Assembly: GCA_009927045.1 (NCBI GenBank)
Contig: RFNT01000062.1
Coordinates: forward strand, 3,971-67,970
DNA: 64,000 nt
Direction: 5' to 3'
DNA from: a bacterium
GTDB taxonomy: Bacteria; Bdellovibrionota; FAC87; UBA2466
Shown: positions 1-13,041 of the stretch, piece after piece
How positions within the stretch are numbered: position 1 is the stretch's first letter
Layout: the number at the start of each line of letters is the position of its first letter
Notes under the pieces: model-generated
The model's input: only the letters and a program-made list of their open reading frames with translations
Databases searched by the model: none
What the model was told of the DNA's origin: nothing
Position numbers and translations under genes: made by a program

Positions 1-621
1 TTTAAACGTGGCTATGGAATCACACGGCTCATTGCTGGCACAAACTTCAATAAAATACCGGATACTTGTGAAGCTTCTGTAGTGCGCGAGCAAAATGAAA
101 CCACACAGATTATTTTTAAATTCGTTCAGTTTCTCGATGAACTGAAACGAGAGTTTAAGGCCCGAAAAGATCCCAGATTCTCACCTAGCTTCACCTGCCT
201 GAGTTTGAATCAAGCCAAAACCCATGACGACAGCATTGAGTTCATCTTCGACGTACGGACATTACCTGAAGTCAATCATGAACGTCTGGAAAAGAAACTT
301 CGGGATGGGATCCGACAGTTAGGTGGCAAAGTCAAAGAGGTTACTTCGGATGCCTCGTTGAAGGGTCAAAAAAACAGTCGCTTCATCGTGACAGCGACTC
401 AGGCCTTGAAGGAATGTGGAATAAAACCAATTTTAAAAACGAAGGCGACTTCCACTGAAGCAGCTATTTATCAGGCTCATGGAGCCAGCGCTGTTGTTTT
501 TGGTCCTGGAATCAGTGTAGGAAATGCTCATCGCCCGAATGAATACAACTCTATCAAACAAATGGAAGTTGCAACCCGCTTCTACAGTCAACTTTTAAAG
601 ACCCCGGTGCAAACGGCATGA
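1..621 (+). CDS. M20 family metallopeptidase (ArgE/DapE-like acetylornithine deacetylase family); 5' end outside the window, and the reading frame is open from nt 1
   Basis: The C-terminal region 'QAHGASAVVFGPGISVGNAHRPNEY' is typical of the ArgE/DapE M20 family. The frame is open back to position 1 and the listed GTG at 82 is internal. Confidence 0.6.
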   Translation, partial: FKRGYGITRLIAGTNFNKIPDTCEASVVREQNETTQIIFKFVQFLDELKREFKARKDPRFSPSFTCLSLNQAKTHDDSIEFIFDVRTLPEVNHERLEKKLRDGIRQLGGKVKEVTSDASLKGQKNSRFIVTATQALKECGIKPILKTKATSTEAAIYQAHGASAVVFGPGISVGNAHRPNEYNSIKQMEVATRFYSQLLKTPVQTA

Positions 622-1652
622 TGGAGTTTGATTTTCTCATTCGAAGTGTTCGTGAACAGGATCTGGATGAGCTGGAACGATTGAGTGAGTTAGTTTATTT
701 TATTAACCTGCCCAATAATCGCGACCTGCTCAAAGACAAGATAAAGAAGTCTGTGGACTCATTCCAGGGCAACATTGAAGACAAATTTGAACGCGAGTAC
801 ATTTTCGTCATTGAGGACTTAAACACTTCTCGAGTGATTGGCACCTCCATGATCATTGCCCGACATGGCAGCCCTGAGAGCCCACACATGTACTTTGAAC
901 TCAAAGAGAAACAGAAGTACAGCGAGACAATCCATGCTGGTTTTATTCACAAAGTCTTGAGCCTTAAGTTTGATTCGGATGGCCCAACAGAAATTGGAGG
1001 CTTAGTCATCGATCCCAGTTACCGAGGTCATAAGTTAAAGTTGGGACGGTTATTATCATTTTGTCGCTTCTCCTTCATAAAAATGAAGCGCCGTTGGTTC
1101 AAAGATCGTATTTTATCTGAGCTGATGCCGCCACTCTCAGAAAGTGGGGAAAGCCTTTTGTGGGAAGCTCTGGGGCGCCGTTTTACGAATCTTTCCTATC
1201 AAGATGCCGACTTGCTTTCGAGAAAAAACAAGGAATTCATCACTTCATTATTTCCTAAAGGTGATATCTACACAGTGCTTTTATCCGGAGAGGCTCGAGA
1301 TGCGATCGGTAAAGTGGGTCCTGATACTGAACCCGTGAAACACATGCTAGAAAAAATAGGATTCAAGTGGCGAGAACACATCGACCCCTTCGATGGTGGG
1401 CCTCACTATTGGGCAGACACCGATAGAATTTCGCTCGTGAGCCAAACCAAGAAGTACCATGTGCATCGAGACCTACTCAAAAGCAGATCCCCAGAAAGAG
1501 CCCTGGTGAGCGTTTTCAGAAATGGGGAGTATCGCTGCATGCAAAGTCCCTTCGAACTTTTTCGAGGAAAAGTACTGTTACCCAAGTCTGTTGCGGATTT
1601 GCTAGAATTGGGAGCAAGCGATGATATTTACCTACTTCCCTTAGAAACTTAA
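618..1652 (+). CDS. astA: Arginine N-succinyltransferase (AstA/AruF family)
   Basis: The 344-aa product aligns along its whole length with E. coli AstA (FLIRSVRE.., YIFVIEDLNTSRVIG, IDPFDGGP) and has the same length. It overlaps the upstream stop by 4 nt (ATGA). Confidence 0.8.
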   Translation: MMEFDFLIRSVREQDLDELERLSELVYFINLPNNRDLLKDKIKKSVDSFQGNIEDKFEREYIFVIEDLNTSRVIGTSMIIARHGSPESPHMYFELKEKQKYSETIHAGFIHKVLSLKFDSDGPTEIGGLVIDPSYRGHKLKLGRLLSFCRFSFIKMKRRWFKDRILSELMPPLSESGESLLWEALGRRFTNLSYQDADLLSRKNKEFITSLFPKGDIYTVLLSGEARDAIGKVGPDTEPVKHMLEKIGFKWREHIDPFDGGPHYWADTDRISLVSQTKKYHVHRDLLKSRSPERALVSVFRNGEYRCMQSPFELFRGKVLLPKSVADLLELGASDDIYLLPLET

Positions 1653-1662
1653 TGCTAGGAAC

Positions 1663-3192
1663 ATGACACCTATGATGGAAAGAAAATATTTAGGAAGTTA
1701 CTTGGGGGGTCATTTTGTCCCGGTCACGGACCCTCATGGAGTTCTTTTTAGTCTCAATCCCGGCAACCTGGATGAAAAACCGGTGGAGTTTCCATTCAGC
1801 AATCCACATGTGGATGCGGCAGTACAACATGCTCGGCGTGGTTTTAAAATTTGGAAACGTATCTCTGTTCAGGAAAGATTTTCAGCTCTAAAGAAATATC
1901 GGGAAGTGCTTGCGCAAAAGAGGGAGTTTCTGGCTTTTTGTGACAGTTTTGAAATTGGCAAACCTCTTTGGGAATCTCGGCAGGAGGTAACTGATTGTTT
2001 GGCCTTGATTGATCATTTCCTTCAAACAGGAAGCCACACTAGCCTTGAAACCACAGTCTCTGAAGCCAAAGCTGGAATTGATGGAAAAATTCGTTACTTT
2101 CCTATCGGCGTTATTGCCGTAGTTTCACAATCGGTTTTGCCGCTAGTTTCGTCCCACAGCTTGTTCATTCCAGCTTTATTGAATGGCAATAGTGTGATCT
2201 TGAAAACATCAAAACATGCCCCGGCTCTAGGCCAAGCGATTGCCCAATGTATCCACGAAGCTGGTTTGCCCGCAGGATGCTTTAATTTTATTCAGGGGCC
2301 CGGAGATATCAGTCGGAGGCTTACAGGACACTCAGAAGTTGATGGAGTTCTTTTTACCGGCACTCCAGAAACCAGTGTAGCCATTAAAAAACAACTTCTG
2401 AATGATTATTGGAAGCTTCAAGTCATTCAAAGTGGCGGCAAAAATGCCTCTGTGGTTTGGAATGATTGCCATTACGAAAGCACACTTAAAAGCCTGTTGC
2501 TCTCTGCGCTTTCTACTTCTGGGCAACGTTATTCCACAACCAGTCGAATCTTAGTTCACAAAGACCTTTACCCCCGCCTTCTCGCTGATTTTCACCAAAT
2601 GTTTAAGAAATGTCCCATCGGAGATGCTTTAAATGAGAAGTCTCCGAATTTCATGGGACCATTGGTGTGCGAAAAGTCCGTAGATGATTACTTACGTTAC
2701 CAAGGAATAGCCGTTCGCGAGGGTTGTGAAGAAGTGATGCGAGGAAAGCCGCTTGAGCGAAGTCCGAGAGGCTACTACGTCTCGCCGTCCATTTATGCTG
2801 TCCCTCAGGCGGATCCTAAAAGCGTCTATCAAACAGCCGAGTTCTTTGGCCCCCAAGTGGCTTTTTATTCAGTCGCAGATCTTGATGAGGCCATTGAGAT
2901 CACCAATCAAACCCAATTTGGGCTGGTAGCCAGTTTTTATTCGGCTTCCGCAAGTTCTTACGAACACTTTTCGAGTGAAGCTAAAGTGGGGATTTGCCAT
3001 TGGAATGTGCCTACTACGCTCTCGAGTTATAAGTTGCCCCTAGGAGGATTACTCAAAAGTGGCAATCTCCGTCCTATGGGGAGCTTCTCGAGTTACCAGT
3101 GCACTTACCCCATGAGCAGTTTGGTGCTTCCCGTGAGTTCTGAATCCTCCGGCTTAGTATTTCCGGAAAGTTTAACCAACTGGGTGGGATAA
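1663..3192 (+). CDS. astD: Aldehyde dehydrogenase superfamily protein, AstD-like (succinylglutamate-semialdehyde dehydrogenase homolog), with catalytic Glu and Cys substituted
   Basis: It has the ALDH fold motifs (FTGTPETSVAIK NAD-binding; C-terminal ..GNLRPMGSFSSYQCTYPMSSL aligns to the AstD tail). The catalytic positions read 'VIQSGGK' (Glu->Gln) and 'GQRYSTTSR' (Cys->Tyr). Confidence 0.7.
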   Translation: MTPMMERKYLGSYLGGHFVPVTDPHGVLFSLNPGNLDEKPVEFPFSNPHVDAAVQHARRGFKIWKRISVQERFSALKKYREVLAQKREFLAFCDSFEIGKPLWESRQEVTDCLALIDHFLQTGSHTSLETTVSEAKAGIDGKIRYFPIGVIAVVSQSVLPLVSSHSLFIPALLNGNSVILKTSKHAPALGQAIAQCIHEAGLPAGCFNFIQGPGDISRRLTGHSEVDGVLFTGTPETSVAIKKQLLNDYWKLQVIQSGGKNASVVWNDCHYESTLKSLLLSALSTSGQRYSTTSRILVHKDLYPRLLADFHQMFKKCPIGDALNEKSPNFMGPLVCEKSVDDYLRYQGIAVREGCEEVMRGKPLERSPRGYYVSPSIYAVPQADPKSVYQTAEFFGPQVAFYSVADLDEAIEITNQTQFGLVASFYSASASSYEHFSSEAKVGICHWNVPTTLSSYKLPLGGLLKSGNLRPMGSFSSYQCTYPMSSLVLPVSSESSGLVFPESLTNWVG

Positions 3193-3650
3193 TGGAGAGA
3201 ACTCGTATTCTTGCTTTAGATATCGGTTCTAAAAGAACTGGAGTGGCACTTTCAGATGAGACACGCTTGATAGCAAGCCCGCTCGTTACCATAGAGGCCT
3301 CCCAGTTCAAACCTTGGCTCGCAAAAATACAGGAACTCATTGAGACCCATGAGGTGGGTGAAGTCGTGGTTGGACTTCCTCTGAATCAAGATGGAGAGGA
3401 AGGACAAGATGCACTCAATATTCGAAAATATATTGCAGCGTTACAGGAAGCACTCACCATCCCCGTGATAGAATGGGATGAAAGATTTTCAACTGTACAA
3501 GCTGAACGCACTCTCATTGAGGCAGACGTTTCTAGAAAGAACAGGAAAAAAGTCATTGATCAGCTAGCAGCCTGTATTATCCTTCAGAATTACTTAGATA
3601 GATTGCGCTTCAACCAAAATACGGAATTACCTGCGTGGGACAACGAATAA
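3192..3650 (+). CDS. ruvX: Putative pre-16S rRNA nuclease / Holliday-junction-resolvase-like YqgF (RuvX)
   Basis: N-terminal 'ILALDIGSKRTGVALSD' is the YqgF/RuvX signature; 152 aa. Confidence 0.85.
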   Translation: MERTRILALDIGSKRTGVALSDETRLIASPLVTIEASQFKPWLAKIQELIETHEVGEVVVGLPLNQDGEEGQDALNIRKYIAALQEALTIPVIEWDERFSTVQAERTLIEADVSRKNRKKVIDQLAACIILQNYLDRLRFNQNTELPAWDNE

Positions 3651-4654
3651 ATTCAACAGGATCAGTCAAGAACGTCCTTTTAGGATTGATTGGGGTTGGT
3701 GCACTTGCCACTCTCGCCCTTTTATTTATGCTGCTCAATGGACATCCTTCCGGAAAAACGAAAGATGTTCTCATTTCTAGGGGTTTATCTCTTAGAGCAG
3801 TTTCTGAGGTTCTTCACCAAGAGGGCTTGGTTAGCCGGCCACGCTTGTTCAGTATTTTGTTACGAGTCACTCAAGGAAACAAACGAGTTCGTGCAGGGGA
3901 ATTTAGATTCCAGATGGGTGCAAATTTGATGAATCATTTGCGCGTACTCTACAATTCAGATCCCATCACTTACGGAATTACAGTTCCGGAGGGTTGGAAT
4001 GTTCGACAAATAGCAAGTTTGCTAGCTGAAAAACAATTAGGAGATGCCCAAAAGTTTGTTCAAATTGCGCTGGATCCTGCTTCGGCAAAAAAACTCAAAT
4101 TGAACACCCCCCACTTAGAAGGCTTTTTGTACCCAGACACCTACTTTTTTTCTCGCATCGATGGTGAACAAAAAATATTAGATGCGATGGTGGGTCGTTT
4201 TTTTCAGGAGTATAACTCTCGATTCAAAGACTCCATTCAAGCCAGTGGTATGAGTCTAGAAAAAGTTGTGACGTTGGCTTCAATTGTAGAAAAGGAAACA
4301 GGTCAACCCAGCGAGCGTCCCTTAATTGCTTCTGTGTTTTTCAACCGATTAAAAAAGGGAATGCGGCTACAAAGCGATCCGACAACTATTTATGGCATCA
4401 ACAACTTTAATGGCAACATCACCAAAGAGGATTTAAGAAAGTTCACCCCTTACAACACCTATGTGATTTCGGGATTGCCCCCGGGTCCAATCGCTAGTCC
4501 GGGTGGAGCTGCTATCGAAGCGGTCTTAAAACCCGAGACGAGTGACTATTTGTATTTTGTGAGTAACAATAACGGAACACATTTCTTTTCCAAAACCTAC
4601 AAAGATCATTTGAAGTTTGTAAAAGAGTATCAAATGAATCGACGAAAAAAGTAA
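3635..4654 (+). CDS. mltG: Endolytic murein transglycosylase MltG (YceG family)
   Basis: N-terminal TM helix and YceG-like domain with the conserved 'GLPPGPIASPG' motif. Confidence 0.85.
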   Translation: MGQRINSTGSVKNVLLGLIGVGALATLALLFMLLNGHPSGKTKDVLISRGLSLRAVSEVLHQEGLVSRPRLFSILLRVTQGNKRVRAGEFRFQMGANLMNHLRVLYNSDPITYGITVPEGWNVRQIASLLAEKQLGDAQKFVQIALDPASAKKLKLNTPHLEGFLYPDTYFFSRIDGEQKILDAMVGRFFQEYNSRFKDSIQASGMSLEKVVTLASIVEKETGQPSERPLIASVFFNRLKKGMRLQSDPTTIYGINNFNGNITKEDLRKFTPYNTYVISGLPPGPIASPGGAAIEAVLKPETSDYLYFVSNNNGTHFFSKTYKDHLKFVKEYQMNRRKK

Positions 4655-4709
4655 AGGCCCCTATGACTCAATCAACCGCCCAAAAAATGATTCTGATTTT
4701 TCAGTAACT

Positions 4710-5142
4710 ATGACTGAGTTAGTGCTTCCTCAACACACCAATGCTTTGGGGCTATTTTTGGCGGAGTCGTGATGGGATGGATTGATATTGCTGGGCCATA
4801 GCCGCTATGCGATTTGCCCGGAGACCGGTAGTTACGGTCAGCATTGACTCACTCCATTTTATTGTTCCGATCAAAACAGGAAACACGGTGCTCACTCGGG
4901 CGCGAGTGACCTACTCCGGGAAAACATCCATTGAGGTAGAAGTCGTGGTCGAAGCTGAGAACAGCGTGACGGGAGTTACTAAGCGCGCCACTCATGCTTT
5001 CCTCACTTACGTGGCAGTGGATGATAATGGAGATCCGACTCCAGTTCCCCCGTTCAATCCCAAAAATGAAGAAGAAAAGAAACGCTATGCGGAAGCCGGA
5101 GCTCGGCGAAAAGCACGGTTAGCTCAAGCCCGTTCTGACTGA
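4710..5142 (+). pseudogene. Acyl-CoA thioester hydrolase (YciA-like hotdog fold) interrupted by two -1 frameshifts at G-runs
   Basis: 'MTELVLPQHTNALG' (frame 0, from 4710), 'IFGGVVMGWIDIAG' (frame 2) and 'AIAAMRFARRPVVTV...' (frame 1, listed ORF 4807..5142) together rebuild a YciA-like N-terminus. The breaks fall at GGGG/GGG runs around 4749-4751 and 4793-4797. Confidence 0.55.
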
Positions 5143-5206
5143 TTGCCCAGTCCTTGGATAAAACTGACAATTTCGGCGAGTGAATTTGCCGCAGTAAAGA
5201 CTTCTC

Positions 5207-9541: not shown

Positions 9542-11230
9542 CTATGTTCCAGTTCGTGGAGCAATGTATTGGTTTCCGGGTTTTCCTGCCTTCAGATACT
9601 TGATATAAGACACCGCTACAAAAACCACCTGAAGAATTAAGTAAGTAATCACGTAACTCAATCCTCCGGAACCAAAGCCATAGGAATGCAGCCCCACTCC
9701 CAAAACAAAATTAACTCCATACCAGGCCATCACGACTCCCAGGAAAGATAAAACGGTAGCCGCTACAAATCCAAATCCCTTCAGCCATCCAGTAAACCGC
9801 CCATGCAGCACGGCTATATAGAACAGAAGGGCTATCAAAGCCCACACTTCCTTGGGATCCCATCCCCAAAATCTTCCCCAAGAATAGTCGGCCCAAATGC
9901 CTCCTAAGATAGTGCCTGCAGCGAGCAAGATCACCCCAATTTGCATCGCTCGGTACATGAACATGATGTTTTGTTGAATCGCTTCGGTTTGGTGCGGCTT
10001 AAAAATATAGAGTCCCAAATTGAGATTCCCCAAGCAAGTTGCGACGGCAAAGCCGGCATAACTCAAAGTAATGCACAGCACATGAATAGTGAGCCAAAAA
10101 TTACTCCTCAGCACTGGAACTAAAGGATGAATGCCCGGATCGAGAACCGAAGGCAGGTAATCCGCCAGAACCAACCCGGCGATGCTAAACACTAAGCTTG
10201 CAGTCGGAATAATGATGTTTCGATACCCCGTCCAGATCAGCAAAGAAAACAGGATACTCCCCCACGTTACCCAAACCACCGATTCATACATATTTGTCAC
10301 AGGAGGACGACCAGCGATCCAGCAGCGCAAAATAAATCCATAGGTATGCATGAGAAAGCCCGCAAATAAAAATGCGGTACCCACTTTTCTCATCAGCTCA
10401 TTTTTCCCTACGATGCTCACCACTAATGCAATTAACGCTGTTAAATAAATGACCCATGCCCAGCGGAATGGACGTGCGCGGTTATAGTGGATCTCAACAT
10501 TCAACTGTGAAGCCGCAGGATATTGCCCTTGGCCCAACTCTTTTCGCAATAACCCTTCAACTTCCAAGGCTCCAGAATTCCATTCAACCGCCTTTTTGTT
10601 TAAGAAAGCATCAACCATTTTACGGAGTGCAAAAGCAAACTGATCTCGGGCATCGGAGTTATAGGGTAAACTACCGCCATCCGTCAGCGCCGATAGGGGA
10701 AACCAGGCCGCTTCTGAACCTTGGGGGTTCGGCAAAATAACCAGTGCGCTTCCTCCGATGATAGCCTCCAATAGATTTTTCTTATTATCTAACTCGATAG
10801 CTTTTTTTTCGAGATCCGTGAGACGCTCTTTTCGATTTTGTTTCTGAACTGCATCACTCACCATTTTATCAAGGCCTTCGACACTTCTAATTTCAATAGG
10901 CCGAAAGTACTGTCGTTTAATATCTAAATGAAGTGCTTCTTTCAGGGGTTTATAATCCACTCGAACAAACTCTTCGCTATCCCAATCTTTATCAAAAGCA
11001 ACCAACCACCCAAAAGTGACTTCACTAGCTGTTAAGCCTTTCCACGAACTTTTGCCAGTGATGTATAGAACGCTCTCTCGAGCAAACGTATCATACGGTT
11101 TCACACGTCCTCGATCTTGAATGGCCCAAGACTCAACGGATTCCCACGAGAAACCATCTCGCTTTTCAACGCTGGAAAAAGTCACACACGAAAAAATGAG
11201 TCCCAACCAAATCAAAAACGACTTTTTCAT
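9542..11230 (-). CDS. ccsA: Cytochrome c biogenesis protein CcsA/ResC (system II heme lyase subunit)
   Basis: Contains the 'WGRFWGWDPKE' WWD motif, multiple TM helices and a large N-terminal periplasmic domain. Confidence 0.85.
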   Translation of the reverse strand: MKKSFLIWLGLIFSCVTFSSVEKRDGFSWESVESWAIQDRGRVKPYDTFARESVLYITGKSSWKGLTASEVTFGWLVAFDKDWDSEEFVRVDYKPLKEALHLDIKRQYFRPIEIRSVEGLDKMVSDAVQKQNRKERLTDLEKKAIELDNKKNLLEAIIGGSALVILPNPQGSEAAWFPLSALTDGGSLPYNSDARDQFAFALRKMVDAFLNKKAVEWNSGALEVEGLLRKELGQGQYPAASQLNVEIHYNRARPFRWAWVIYLTALIALVVSIVGKNELMRKVGTAFLFAGFLMHTYGFILRCWIAGRPPVTNMYESVVWVTWGSILFSLLIWTGYRNIIIPTASLVFSIAGLVLADYLPSVLDPGIHPLVPVLRSNFWLTIHVLCITLSYAGFAVATCLGNLNLGLYIFKPHQTEAIQQNIMFMYRAMQIGVILLAAGTILGGIWADYSWGRFWGWDPKEVWALIALLFYIAVLHGRFTGWLKGFGFVAATVLSFLGVVMAWYGVNFVLGVGLHSYGFGSGGLSYVITYLILQVVFVAVSYIKYLKAGKPGNQYIAPRTGT

Positions 11231-13041
11231 TGTGTCTCCTTATGGTTTCCCACCAAGATTTTCAAATAGTGCGGATTCATATAAAACATGATCGCAATTC
11301 CCAAAGTCATCAGAAGAGAACCTAAATATTTGAGCACTCTACCGGGATCGTGATTAACTGCGAAGACAGAGACTGCGGGCTGCCCGGGAGACAATTGATA
11401 ACTTGCTTGATAAAAATAGTAGCCTCCATATTTCAAGGGCTCATTCATACTAATAGTCGCTTTTTTATCCGATTGAGCCTTCGGATCTTTTACCGTGACG
11501 TCGCTGATAAAGCTGGCAGCAGTATTAGTCCCAGGATTCGTCCCCATCGTAAACTTATCTAGATAGAGCTGAAAAGGAAGGGTCATCCGGTCACGATGGT
11601 ACTGAACAATCAGATCCCCTGACGAAGCAGCAACACTTTTTCCCATTCCTTCCAAAAGCCAAAAGGCAGGCGTGTTTCCCACGCGCATTCGGACAGCCGT
11701 GAGAAAGGGCTCATCAGCTCCCTGTAAAACTTCGACTGAACGCGGCTCTTCATCCAGCACGGAACTGGGAATCCAGTCTTTGAGGGACAACTCAATGTCC
11801 ATCCAGCCAGTAGCAACTTTCTCTCCGGCTTTGAGTTGCCCTTCTCCATTCACAGCTCCCGCACTTGATAACACGCGATACAATATTTTCGACCGATCCG
11901 CTGATTGCGCTAGGAATAAATGCCCACGCGCCCTGCCCACCCCGCGCAATGACTCTTCTTTTTCAGGACCTCGATAGGATAATGTCACACCCAGAGGATT
12001 TTTCTTGTTTTTAGCCCCTTGGTGGAGCGTATTGAACTCAGGGAACAAAGCAAAGACGGTGTGCTTCTCGGGTGGTGTTGCCTGCCCCATCTCTCTCACT
12101 TCCACTTCTACGGCCGGATTCACCGGTTCCTGGCTTTTGGAAATGAGTTTTTTCCCGTCAACAACAGCGTAAGGCAAATAGCGTTTGACTTGGATTTCTA
12201 ATTTTACTTCTTCCAGTGGTCTCCACTTACCCAATAATTCAGAAACCTGGAGGGCAAAACGCTTCCCTTGAACTTCGATGAGCAAACGCCCCTGATCTTT
12301 TCCTTTTGGCTGAGGAGCCTTAGGCTTTCGCTGAAAAAAAGCCTGCTCATCAGCGCTCGTTTTCAACGCTTCAAATGTCACGATTGCAGGACCTAAATTC
12401 AGTTCTGCTCGCTCGGTTTTTGCTTCTGGCCTTAACCATTGTTCAATTTGGAACCGACTGTTGGTGAGCCCCACTTTAACAGCGGGCAACCCAATCCCTG
12501 GAGTGGGACTGGGAACCATTTTGGTCTCTGGGATCGCGCGAGGGATAAACTTTTCGATTTGGATCTGTTCTCCCCCTGCCAAATCTACTTGCATTAATTT
12601 TCCTACTTTACTCCGGTGGAACTCAGGAACAGAAAACATTTGGGTGGTACCCGTTCGCTGATCGGTTACCGTCAACTTTAAGTCATTCAGGATCACTTCT
12701 TGGCTTTGCTGCTTTTCGGGAATAGGCATATTGCCATCCAATCCGAACTGCTGAGTCACAAAAGCCCCGGCCAAAATCACAATGATTCCTAAATGGGTGA
12801 TCACAAACCCAGTTTGTCGCATTTTCCAGGGGTATCGAGACATGGCTGCGCAGAACACATTGAGCCCCAACAAGAAGAGAACCCCTCCAAACCACCAACG
12901 TTGGTACACCACGATTTGAGAACCACGCATGCCGTAATAGCTACCGACAAAAGTAGCAAAGGCCAAAACGGCAGATAACAGCAACAATGAAAACACTGCC
13001 AACTTTAAGGATGAAAAAAATTTAAAGAGTCCTTTAATCAT
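11227..13041 (-). CDS. ccsB: Cytochrome c biogenesis protein CcsB/ResB
   Basis: ResB-type N-terminus 'MIKGLFKFFSSLKLAVFSLLLLSAVLAF' and a large periplasmic domain. It lies immediately upstream of ccsA with a 4-nt overlap. The listed start (13113) overlaps the upstream gene by 80 nt, so I used the internal Met. Confidence 0.8.
   Translation of the reverse strand: MIKGLFKFFSSLKLAVFSLLLLSAVLAFATFVGSYYGMRGSQIVVYQRWWFGGVLFLLGLNVFCAAMSRYPWKMRQTGFVITHLGIIVILAGAFVTQQFGLDGNMPIPEKQQSQEVILNDLKLTVTDQRTGTTQMFSVPEFHRSKVGKLMQVDLAGGEQIQIEKFIPRAIPETKMVPSPTPGIGLPAVKVGLTNSRFQIEQWLRPEAKTERAELNLGPAIVTFEALKTSADEQAFFQRKPKAPQPKGKDQGRLLIEVQGKRFALQVSELLGKWRPLEEVKLEIQVKRYLPYAVVDGKKLISKSQEPVNPAVEVEVREMGQATPPEKHTVFALFPEFNTLHQGAKNKKNPLGVTLSYRGPEKEESLRGVGRARGHLFLAQSADRSKILYRVLSSAGAVNGEGQLKAGEKVATGWMDIELSLKDWIPSSVLDEEPRSVEVLQGADEPFLTAVRMRVGNTPAFWLLEGMGKSVAASSGDLIVQYHRDRMTLPFQLYLDKFTMGTNPGTNTAASFISDVTVKDPKAQSDKKATISMNEPLKYGGYYFYQASYQLSPGQPAVSVFAVNHDPGRVLKYLGSLLMTLGIAIMFYMNPHYLKILVGNHKETQ

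Follow-up and report, generated by a model that had tools for sequence, protein, structure and literature searches.

Dead enzymes that selection retains are well documented in eukaryotes and much less so in bacteria, where useless genes are normally deleted quickly. Within the aldehyde dehydrogenase (ALDH) superfamily, the taxon-specific crystallins of animal lenses (e.g., omega-crystallin) are ALDH-fold proteins of very high abundance with a structural role. Human ALDH16 (ALDH16A1) is a superfamily pseudoenzyme that lacks the catalytic Cys and is regarded as a binding protein (PMC8160307), and GRM1 bacterial microcompartment (BMC) loci encode a second AldDH in which this Cys is replaced by Ser or Pro, with a proposed role as scaffold or regulator (PMC4207490). 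Here we describe an ALDH-like gene at positions 1663 to 3192 of a 64,000-nucleotide stretch of contig RFNT01000062.1 (assembly GCA_009927045.1; Bdellovibrionota), hereafter the window. Its product derives from succinylglutamate-semialdehyde dehydrogenase (AstD) of the arginine succinyltransferase (AST) pathway and has lost the whole catalytic apparatus of that enzyme while remaining under tight selection.

The nearest described system is AstD itself (TIGR03240 / PRK09457; structures 3ju8, 4kna and 5u0l), the best match in both sequence and fold. The GQR and SGNxRP motifs and the C-terminal C..P are kept, and the gene sits in the same slot as canonical Bdellovibrionota astD, after the M20 deacylase and astA genes and before (ruvX-)yceG. 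Unlike AstD, the protein lacks Asn169, Glu268 and Cys302, has Glu195 reversed, has lost the AstD loops, scores about half of the family cut-off and has no astC nearby (residue numbers Asn169, Lys192, Glu195, Gly225, Gly245, Ser246, Gly250, Glu268, Cys302, Glu399 and Phe401 follow ALDH2). With ALDH16A1 it shares an ALDH fold without the catalytic Cys; that protein, however, is eukaryotic and belongs to another ALDH family with another architecture, whereas the gene studied here is a bacterial operon ortholog with three catalytic residues lost and many independent substitutions across its clade. The second AldDH of GRM1 loci is likewise a bacterial, operon-encoded, ALDH-family protein without the catalytic Cys, but it is a paralog beside an active AldDH in a microcompartment locus, while the present gene is the only AstD-like one per genome (among the best 80 loci) and has no BMC genes around it. 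As in the crystallins, an ALDH fold would be kept for a non-enzymatic role, yet nothing in this protein suggests an abundant structural one. Ortholog replacement in a catabolic operon, loss of the full triad, clade-wide reversal of the cofactor selector and repeated subclade-specific re-fixation of the pocket together set it apart from ALDH16 and the GRM1 AldDH. Full-text literature searches turned up neither a report of an inactive AstD nor an account of the AST genes in Bdellovibrio. The gene and the positions within it on which the argument turns are as follows.

1663..3192, + strand: the ALDH-like gene, an AstD-derived ALDH-fold open reading frame (Pfam, NCBIfam and PDB matches, AlphaFold2, Foldseek)
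2125..2160, + strand: residues 155-166, the former Asn169 loop and the start of the substrate-channel helix, SQSVLPLVSSHS where canonical AstD has GPFNFPGHLPNG (alignments)
2134-2136, + strand: GTT, V158 in place of the oxyanion-hole Asn169 (GPFNFP to SQSVLP), two base changes from any Asn codon
2203..2214, + strand: KTSK where canonical AstD has KPSE, with Lys192 kept as K181 and Glu195 replaced by K184 (AAA, 2212-2214) (alignments)
2359..2376, + strand: GTPETS where canonical AstD has GSYEVG (the GSxxxG cofactor-phosphate motif), with Gly245 kept, Ser246 replaced by Thr and Gly250 by Ser (alignments)
2428-2430, + strand: CAA, Q256 at the position of the general base Glu268 (structure and family alignments)
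2530-2532, + strand: TAT, Y290 at the position of the nucleophile Cys302, the preceding G-Q-R being kept (structure and family alignments)

The open reading frame (ORF) is uninterrupted and encodes 509 aa; an alternative ATG at 1672 gives a 506-aa form, which is the version called in public assemblies, where homologs are annotated as 'succinylglutamic semialdehyde dehydrogenase' or 'aldehyde dehydrogenase family protein'. The protein belongs to the ALDH superfamily by its match to Pfam Aldedh (PF00171; E=7e-88, 295.6 bits, residues 48-475 on profile positions 29-450 of 461). Its top NCBIfam models are the two for AstD (TIGR03240 / NF006992), at 284.1 and 268.3 bits, about half of the curated cut-offs (514 and 579.3 bits, respectively), so that it falls outside AstD proper by score as well as by its missing Cys, Glu and Asn. 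Catalytically intact Bdellovibrionota AstD orthologs also stay under the NCBIfam cut-offs (484 vs 514; 457 vs 579); the canonical positional ortholog at locus L010 (9992-11476), for instance, reaches 457.5 and 484 bits. When all PDB chains were searched with phmmer, the AstD-family structures 5u0l, 4kna and 3ju8 ranked first, with alignments that run from residue ~27 or ~48 to ~490 and include the AstD-type C-terminal SGNxRP...C..P segment. An AlphaFold2 model built from a 47-sequence alignment has a mean predicted local distance difference test (pLDDT) score of 92.5 and a predicted template modeling (pTM) score of 0.90, and Foldseek again returns 5u0l, 4kna and 3ju8 as the top matches for this model, with TM scores of 0.86-0.90 to many ALDH structures and hence the three-domain ALDH fold. 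By these comparisons the protein is a full-length, AstD-derived ALDH-fold protein whose nearest relatives are AstD, and it is predicted to be stably folded.

The phmmer alignments to the three AstD structures place VIQSGGKN opposite L-E-M-GGNN and GQRYSTT opposite GQRCTCA, a residue mapping on which three independent alignments agree (PDB phmmer, and MAFFT alignments of 121 and of 138 sequences). Because the Glu268 and Cys302 columns are invariant in 44/44 canonical AstD relatives and read Q and Y in all 18 members of the subclade to which the window protein belongs, the replacements are neither an alignment artefact nor chance. Equivalents of Lys192, Gly225, Gly245, Glu399 and Phe401 are kept, together with GQR and SGNxRP; the Pro193 equivalent and the two AstD-invariant loops (GPFNFPGHLPNG and TGASS..PFGG) are lost. 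At the NAD+ site, this leaves Lys192, Gly245, Glu399 and Phe401 beside Lys for Glu195, Thr for Ser246 and Ser for Gly250. In ALDHs, the side chain of Asn169 and the backbone amide of the Cys stabilise the oxyanion. The Cys thiolate forms the thiohemiacetal and thioester, and Glu268 activates both the thiol and the hydrolytic water (PMC8160307). With Cys, Glu268 and Asn169 all replaced, aldehyde oxidation is not credible, and the residues argue strongly that the protein would be unable to oxidise N-succinylglutamate semialdehyde, or any aldehyde, through the thiohemiacetal mechanism, which would make it a pseudoenzyme.

An earlier note, made from the letters of the window, had read Glu to Gln at CAA 2428-2430 and Cys to Tyr at TAT 2530-2532; both codons are exact and their mapping is upheld by the 5u0l, 4kna and 3ju8 alignments. 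Several of its other readings held in part. The alignment to AstD that it described as end-to-end does include the AstD-type C-terminal segment up to residue 490, but not the N-terminal residues before ~27/48. Its two lost catalytic residues are indeed Glu and Cys, but the loss is wider, taking in Asn169 and the AstD-specific substrate loops. The NAD-binding motifs that it considered retained do keep Lys192, Gly225, Gly245, Glu399 and Phe401; KPSE has nevertheless become KTSK, GSxxxG has become GTPETS, and the Glu195 position is Lys or Arg in 71 of 86 relatives.

Searching 5.8 billion proteins yielded homologs that form a graded series. In the 121-sequence alignment, the pattern SQS[VI].P / [IL]QS.G[KR]N / GQRY / GT[PS]E[TS] is common to the 16 nearest (55-98% identity; assemblies from ENA, JGI, Logan and NCBI), and those at ~40% identity are canonical (GPFNFP / KPSE / LEMGGKN / GQRC). 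The nearest named genome, the metagenome-assembled genome (MAG) 'Bdellovibrio sp. ZAP7', has the same residues at 70% identity; no cultured organisms were seen among the clade members. In a neighbor-joining (NJ) tree, 86 of the 138 sequences form one clade, sister to canonical Bdellovibrionota AstD (50/50 bootstraps), within which the Q/Y subclade of the window protein (n=18, 55-98% identity) is also recovered in 50/50 bootstraps. Compared with 44/44 canonical sequences in each case, the clade keeps Asn169 in 8/86, Glu268 in 32/86, Cys302 in 24/86 and the full Asn/Glu/Cys triad in 1/86. Parsimony on the tree requires at least 12 Cys/non-Cys changes and at least 23 residue changes in the Cys column. 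The residues at the Asn/Glu/Cys positions are V/Q/Y in the subclade of the window and I/D/R, T/D/C, D/D/S or H/E/F elsewhere.

Mean column conservation is alike in the clade and in canonical AstD (0.632 vs 0.630). Columns that canonical sequences keep invariant but that have relaxed in the clade cluster at the Asn loop with the helix after it (155-166), Pro193, Ser246, Gly250, L-E-M (255-257), Cys302 and the TGASS..PF loop (453-460). Positions 155-166 are the most relaxed of all, with Q156, S157, V158 and S163 fixed anew in the Q/Y subclade. By contrast with these, the clade retains K192 in 85/86, G225 and G245 in 86/86, GQR in 85-86/86 and E399 in 80/86, and GGKN, HWN..T and SGNxRP are conserved in clade and canonical sequences alike. 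Residues both invariant in the clade and specific to it are Y79, H165, H299, H311, K315, R345, E357, M472 and Q479. The Glu195 position is Lys or Arg in 71/86 members, against Glu or Asp in 44/44 canonical sequences. As judged from the alignment, the two AstD-specific substrate loops are without their former constraint in the clade, and relaxation is confined to the active-site and substrate loops. Within the Q/Y subclade, 16 residues are invariant and subclade-specific, 10 of them at former active-site or cofactor-site positions (Q156, S157, V158, S163, T234, P235, I255, Q256, S257 and Y290), a pattern which points to a pocket that was remodelled and then frozen, rather than one that is drifting.

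Selection on the gene was gauged by the ratio of non-synonymous to synonymous substitution (dN/dS). Relative to the nearest relative, L001 (89% nucleotide identity), there are 135 synonymous and 10 non-synonymous differences (dN/dS 0.015), compared with dN/dS of 0.025 for astA, 0.035 for M20, 0.039 for ruvX and 0.052 for yceG. A further informative pair, L005 vs L094, yields 0.025; in all deeper pairs the synonymous sites are saturated and pN is 0.05-0.20. No indels or stops occur in the 1.5 kb of the gene, and it is under purifying selection as strong as that on its housekeeping neighbours. The protein thus combines homology to an active family and the absence of its essential catalytic residues with retention under purifying selection across species, as expected of a pseudoenzyme.

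The setting of the gene bears on its descent. Neighbourhoods were collected by three routes: exact-protein look-ups, a scan of GTDB with each species represented by one genome (best 80 loci) and an AstA-anchored scan of JGI metagenomes. The genes that adjoin it in the window are as follows.

1..621, + strand: 3' portion of the gene for an M20 (ArgE/DapE-type) deacylase, truncated by the window start, its stop overlapping the astA start (ATGA) (profile matches)
618..1652, + strand: AstA-like N-succinyltransferase-family gene, directly upstream of the ALDH-like gene (10-19 nt gap; PF04958 E=1.5e-99, under NCBIfam cut-offs; dN/dS 0.025)
3192-3650, + strand: ruvX, its ATG overlapping the ALDH-like stop by 1 nt
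3635-4654, + strand: yceG/mltG, which with ruvX (3192..4654) is conserved downstream and anchors positional orthology to canonical astD loci
4663-5145, + strand: 4HBT thioesterase gene downstream of yceG, broken over three frames when compared with its 160-aa L001 ortholog

Canonical Bdellovibrionota astD loci are laid out as AstC (class-III aminotransferase)-M20 deacylase-AstA-AstD, with yceG directly next in L010, and the window and its relatives read rnc-era-der (divergent), then M20-AstA-ALDH-RuvX-YceG-4HBT. The shared order makes the ALDH-like gene the positional ortholog of astD, lying beside astA in an ast-type cluster, and AstC-M20 deacylase-AstA-AstD is the ancestral Bdellovibrionota operon. 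Among 16 distinct clade loci, M20 is present in 14, AstA in 14 and an AstC homolog in none; in the 64-kb window itself there is neither an AstC homolog nor a second ALDH. We did not take the loss of astC as proof that the pathway was lost, since the canonical M20-AstA-AstD loci L160, L162 and L171 are also without an adjacent astC, and the loss is only suggestive. No genome among the best 80 GTDB loci carries two AstD-like loci (the MAGs being incomplete), which fits replacement rather than duplication. Together with positional orthology, this observation, weak evidence given incomplete MAGs, led us to reject the idea of a paralog of a surviving AstD. The canonical operon, for its part, has an M20 deacylase in place of AstE and no AstB nearby. 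As its AstD also scores below the family cut-offs, the ancestral pathway may have been a variant, of the ornithine type or another succinyltransferase route, and not textbook AST.

In a monophyletic lineage of uncultured Bdellovibrionales, then, astC was lost from the locus and the catalytic residues were replaced. We propose that the scaffold, still under selection, binds a ligand without turnover. Candidate ligands are an adenine nucleotide with an additional phosphate, resembling NADP(H) or possibly CoA, an acidic N-acyl amino acid, or both. The protein could then have a regulatory or scaffolding part in what remains of the M20/AstA module, to which it would be coupled in translation through the short gap to astA and the overlap of its stop with the ruvX start. 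In active ALDHs, Glu195 is hydrogen-bonded to the ribose of adenosine and selects against a 2'-phosphate, and the roles of Lys192 and Glu399 are described in the same source (PMC8160307). The dinucleotide scaffold, the GQR Arg and SGNxRP are invariant or nearly so, Glu195 is reversed and the pocket is frozen; taken together, these features make binding without turnover the most likely function. A selected, non-catalytic ligand-binding protein, acting as regulator or scaffold tied to M20/AstA, is accordingly the reading that we lean towards, with moderate confidence.

Several observations weigh against it. The phosphate-binding turn has changes at Ser246, Thr247 and Gly250 (GTPETS), and Pro193 has been lost, which leaves nucleotide binding uncertain. 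AstA is absent at L009 and L088 and M20 at L086 and L096, and all four loci keep the ALDH-like gene; in L089, L090, L091 and L095, 1-6 kb are inserted between AstA and it, and in many such clade loci a Glyco_transf_9 gene lies directly downstream and is coupled to it. The link to AstA and M20 is insecure for these reasons, and the idea of an obligate partner of AstA is weakened by the loci without AstA or M20. Moreover, most clade loci were found through the ALDH-like protein itself, an ascertainment bias that leaves the four AstA-anchored loci as the one independent test of the association. Finally, a frozen, remodelled pocket is equally expected from a new catalytic activity.

Such an activity is the most substantial of the rival explanations. 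The ALDH fold could have been adapted, by way of its altered pocket, to a reaction that needs no cysteine, either direct NADPH-linked carbonyl reduction with Tyr290 as general acid or a non-redox step on an N-succinylated intermediate that AstA makes and M20 releases. Ten new pocket residues are invariant in 17-18 of 18 subclade members despite up to 45% overall divergence, the clade gains the invariant polar residues H165, H311, E357, R345 and Q479, and the Lys or Arg in place of Glu195 is consistent with a change of cofactor to a phosphorylated one (PMC8160307 describes what the acidic residue does). The pairing of AstA and M20, succinylation and desuccinylation, also makes metabolic sense only with an intervening step, and the ALDH-like gene is the sole other conserved gene of the cluster. 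Against this, no common catalytic set emerges: the residue at the nucleophile position varies by subclade (Y, C, R, S, F, T, V, E, H, W, D), positions 169 and 268 vary likewise, and AstA or M20 is absent from some loci. It counts further against this explanation that we know of no cysteine-independent chemistry for PF00171 proteins, and we regard it as possible but rather doubtful. A broader version is equally tentative. In it, the 86-member clade would be a radiation of the ALDH scaffold, its pocket rebuilt and frozen per subclade and the switch from Glu195 to Lys/Arg clade-wide, which gained cysteine-independent NADP(H)- or CoA-linked chemistry or metabolite-sensing specificities and replaced the AstD step in predatory Bdellovibrionales.

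Conventional aldehyde dehydrogenase activity with another Cys/Glu pair in the active site is a far weaker candidate. The protein does have 10 cysteines, of which C480 and C355 are conserved in the subclade, but canonical AstD conserves C480 equally well (43/44), the segment containing C355 is conserved there too, and neither is in an active-site loop; C445 is limited to the subclade (15/18), with no counterpart elsewhere in the clade. As the three alignments yield one mapping and the losses extend to the general base and to the Asn of the oxyanion hole, we consider such a pair very improbable, and we rejected it on finding no cysteine conserved specifically across the clade. An artefact is less probable still. 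The missing astC and the indel-type defects elsewhere in the window (the 4HBT gene at ~4663-5145, with two frameshifts relative to L001) might raise the suspicion of sequencing errors, or of a pseudogene that is disappearing now that the AST pathway has collapsed. Yet the same substitutions are shared by 18 sequences whose assemblies (ENA, JGI, Logan and NCBI) are independent, the change of Asn to Val requires two base changes, the 1.5 kb are free of indels and stops at dN/dS of 0.015-0.025, and the AlphaFold2 model is confident and complete. Ortholog concordance and dN/dS led us to dismiss error and decay almost entirely.

These results bear on what else the earlier note had proposed. It took both changes for true substitutions rather than indel-type errors, and their presence in 18/18 subclade members agrees; the comparison with orthologs in related genomes that it had called for likewise returned the same substitutions, contradicting the suggestion that Glu and Cys might have been lost to read errors. 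Candidate pseudoenzyme was the right category, given changes conserved in orthologs and very strong purifying selection. The decay that it offered as an alternative does not fit this gene (dN/dS 0.015, pLDDT 92.5), the surrounding operon being nonetheless without astC. The adjoining astA that it called intact is so as an ORF, and constrained, but it is a divergent, AstA-like gene under the NCBIfam cut-offs. A non-catalytic binding or regulatory role, as the note suggested, is plausible, and its dependence on astA is doubtful, since the ALDH-like gene persists without astA (L009, L088) or M20 (L086, L096).

What we describe is a bacterial case of an already known category, dead ALDHs; it is robust, extends over a family of proteins and is mis-annotated, and it is not a new category of biology. 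Its interest lies in that an operon-encoded ortholog, not a spare paralog, has lost the whole catalytic apparatus and has yet been kept, under selection as tight as that on ruvX or mltG. The nucleophile was replaced many times across a well-supported clade, and, combined with this tight selection, that suggests that the AstD scaffold has a second function, one which predates catalysis or took its place. With public annotation as aldehyde dehydrogenase, metabolic reconstructions from Bdellovibrionales MAGs would wrongly infer an AST or aldehyde-oxidation step.

The locus is under rearrangement in other members of the clade. At L086 (12721-14139), a DDE transposase gene lies between Glyco_transf_9 and ruvX, while M20 is missing and AstA has been cut down to 304 aa; at L088, AstA is deleted; and at L089 (1921-7969), a 6-kb block (GT2, methyltransferases, epimerase) separates AstA from the ALDH-like gene. 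In the window, the AstA-like gene is intact and constrained. Its G234 (IGKVGPDTEP) aligns with the His of GQVHP in P. aeruginosa AruF (1yle) and proteobacterial AstA/AruG, a residue that is presumably the annotated proton donor. The same Gly is found in every Bdellovibrionota and Myxococcota AstA-like protein examined, all of them under the NCBIfam AstA cut-offs and some of them neighbours of canonical AstD. Being shared so widely, it is not a marker of this lineage, and we discarded the idea that a dead AstA accompanies the dead ALDH; the whole Bdellovibrionota/Myxococcota AstA-like group may, judging from these alignments, use another catalytic residue or another substrate. The full-length M20 ortholog in L001 has 431 aa, its best models being acetylornithine deacetylase/DapE, under cut-off. 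The 4HBT gene reads DSDFSVTMTELVLPQHTNALG in one frame, AIFGGVVMGWIDIAG in a second and the remainder, from AIAAMRFARRP, in a third, with two frameshifts within ~100 nt; these are either indel-type sequencing errors or the mark of a real pseudogene, and the ALDH-like gene has no such defect. No Rfam family reached its gathering score in the 64-kb window (no tRNA, rRNA or riboswitch).

Outside the studied clade, loss of the AstD nucleophile seems, from the alignments, to have happened several times. In four MAGs assigned to Alphaproteobacteria, 'Deltaproteobacteria' or Pseudomonadota (L051, L060, L068 and L081), the motifs read GQRH, YQCGGKG (Glu to Gln) and KPSK; L042 has GQRF with LNISGKN, and L046 has GQRQ. 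An independent case in a cultured alphaproteobacterium, Novosphingobium aerophilum strain 4Y4 (L074, NZ_JACLAU010000007.1, 10001-11290), is an AstD-like protein with Ser/Asp/Ser at the Asn/Glu/Cys positions (LTPYSSPAQ, ISLDMGGNN, GQRS), and it could be an experimentally tractable parallel.

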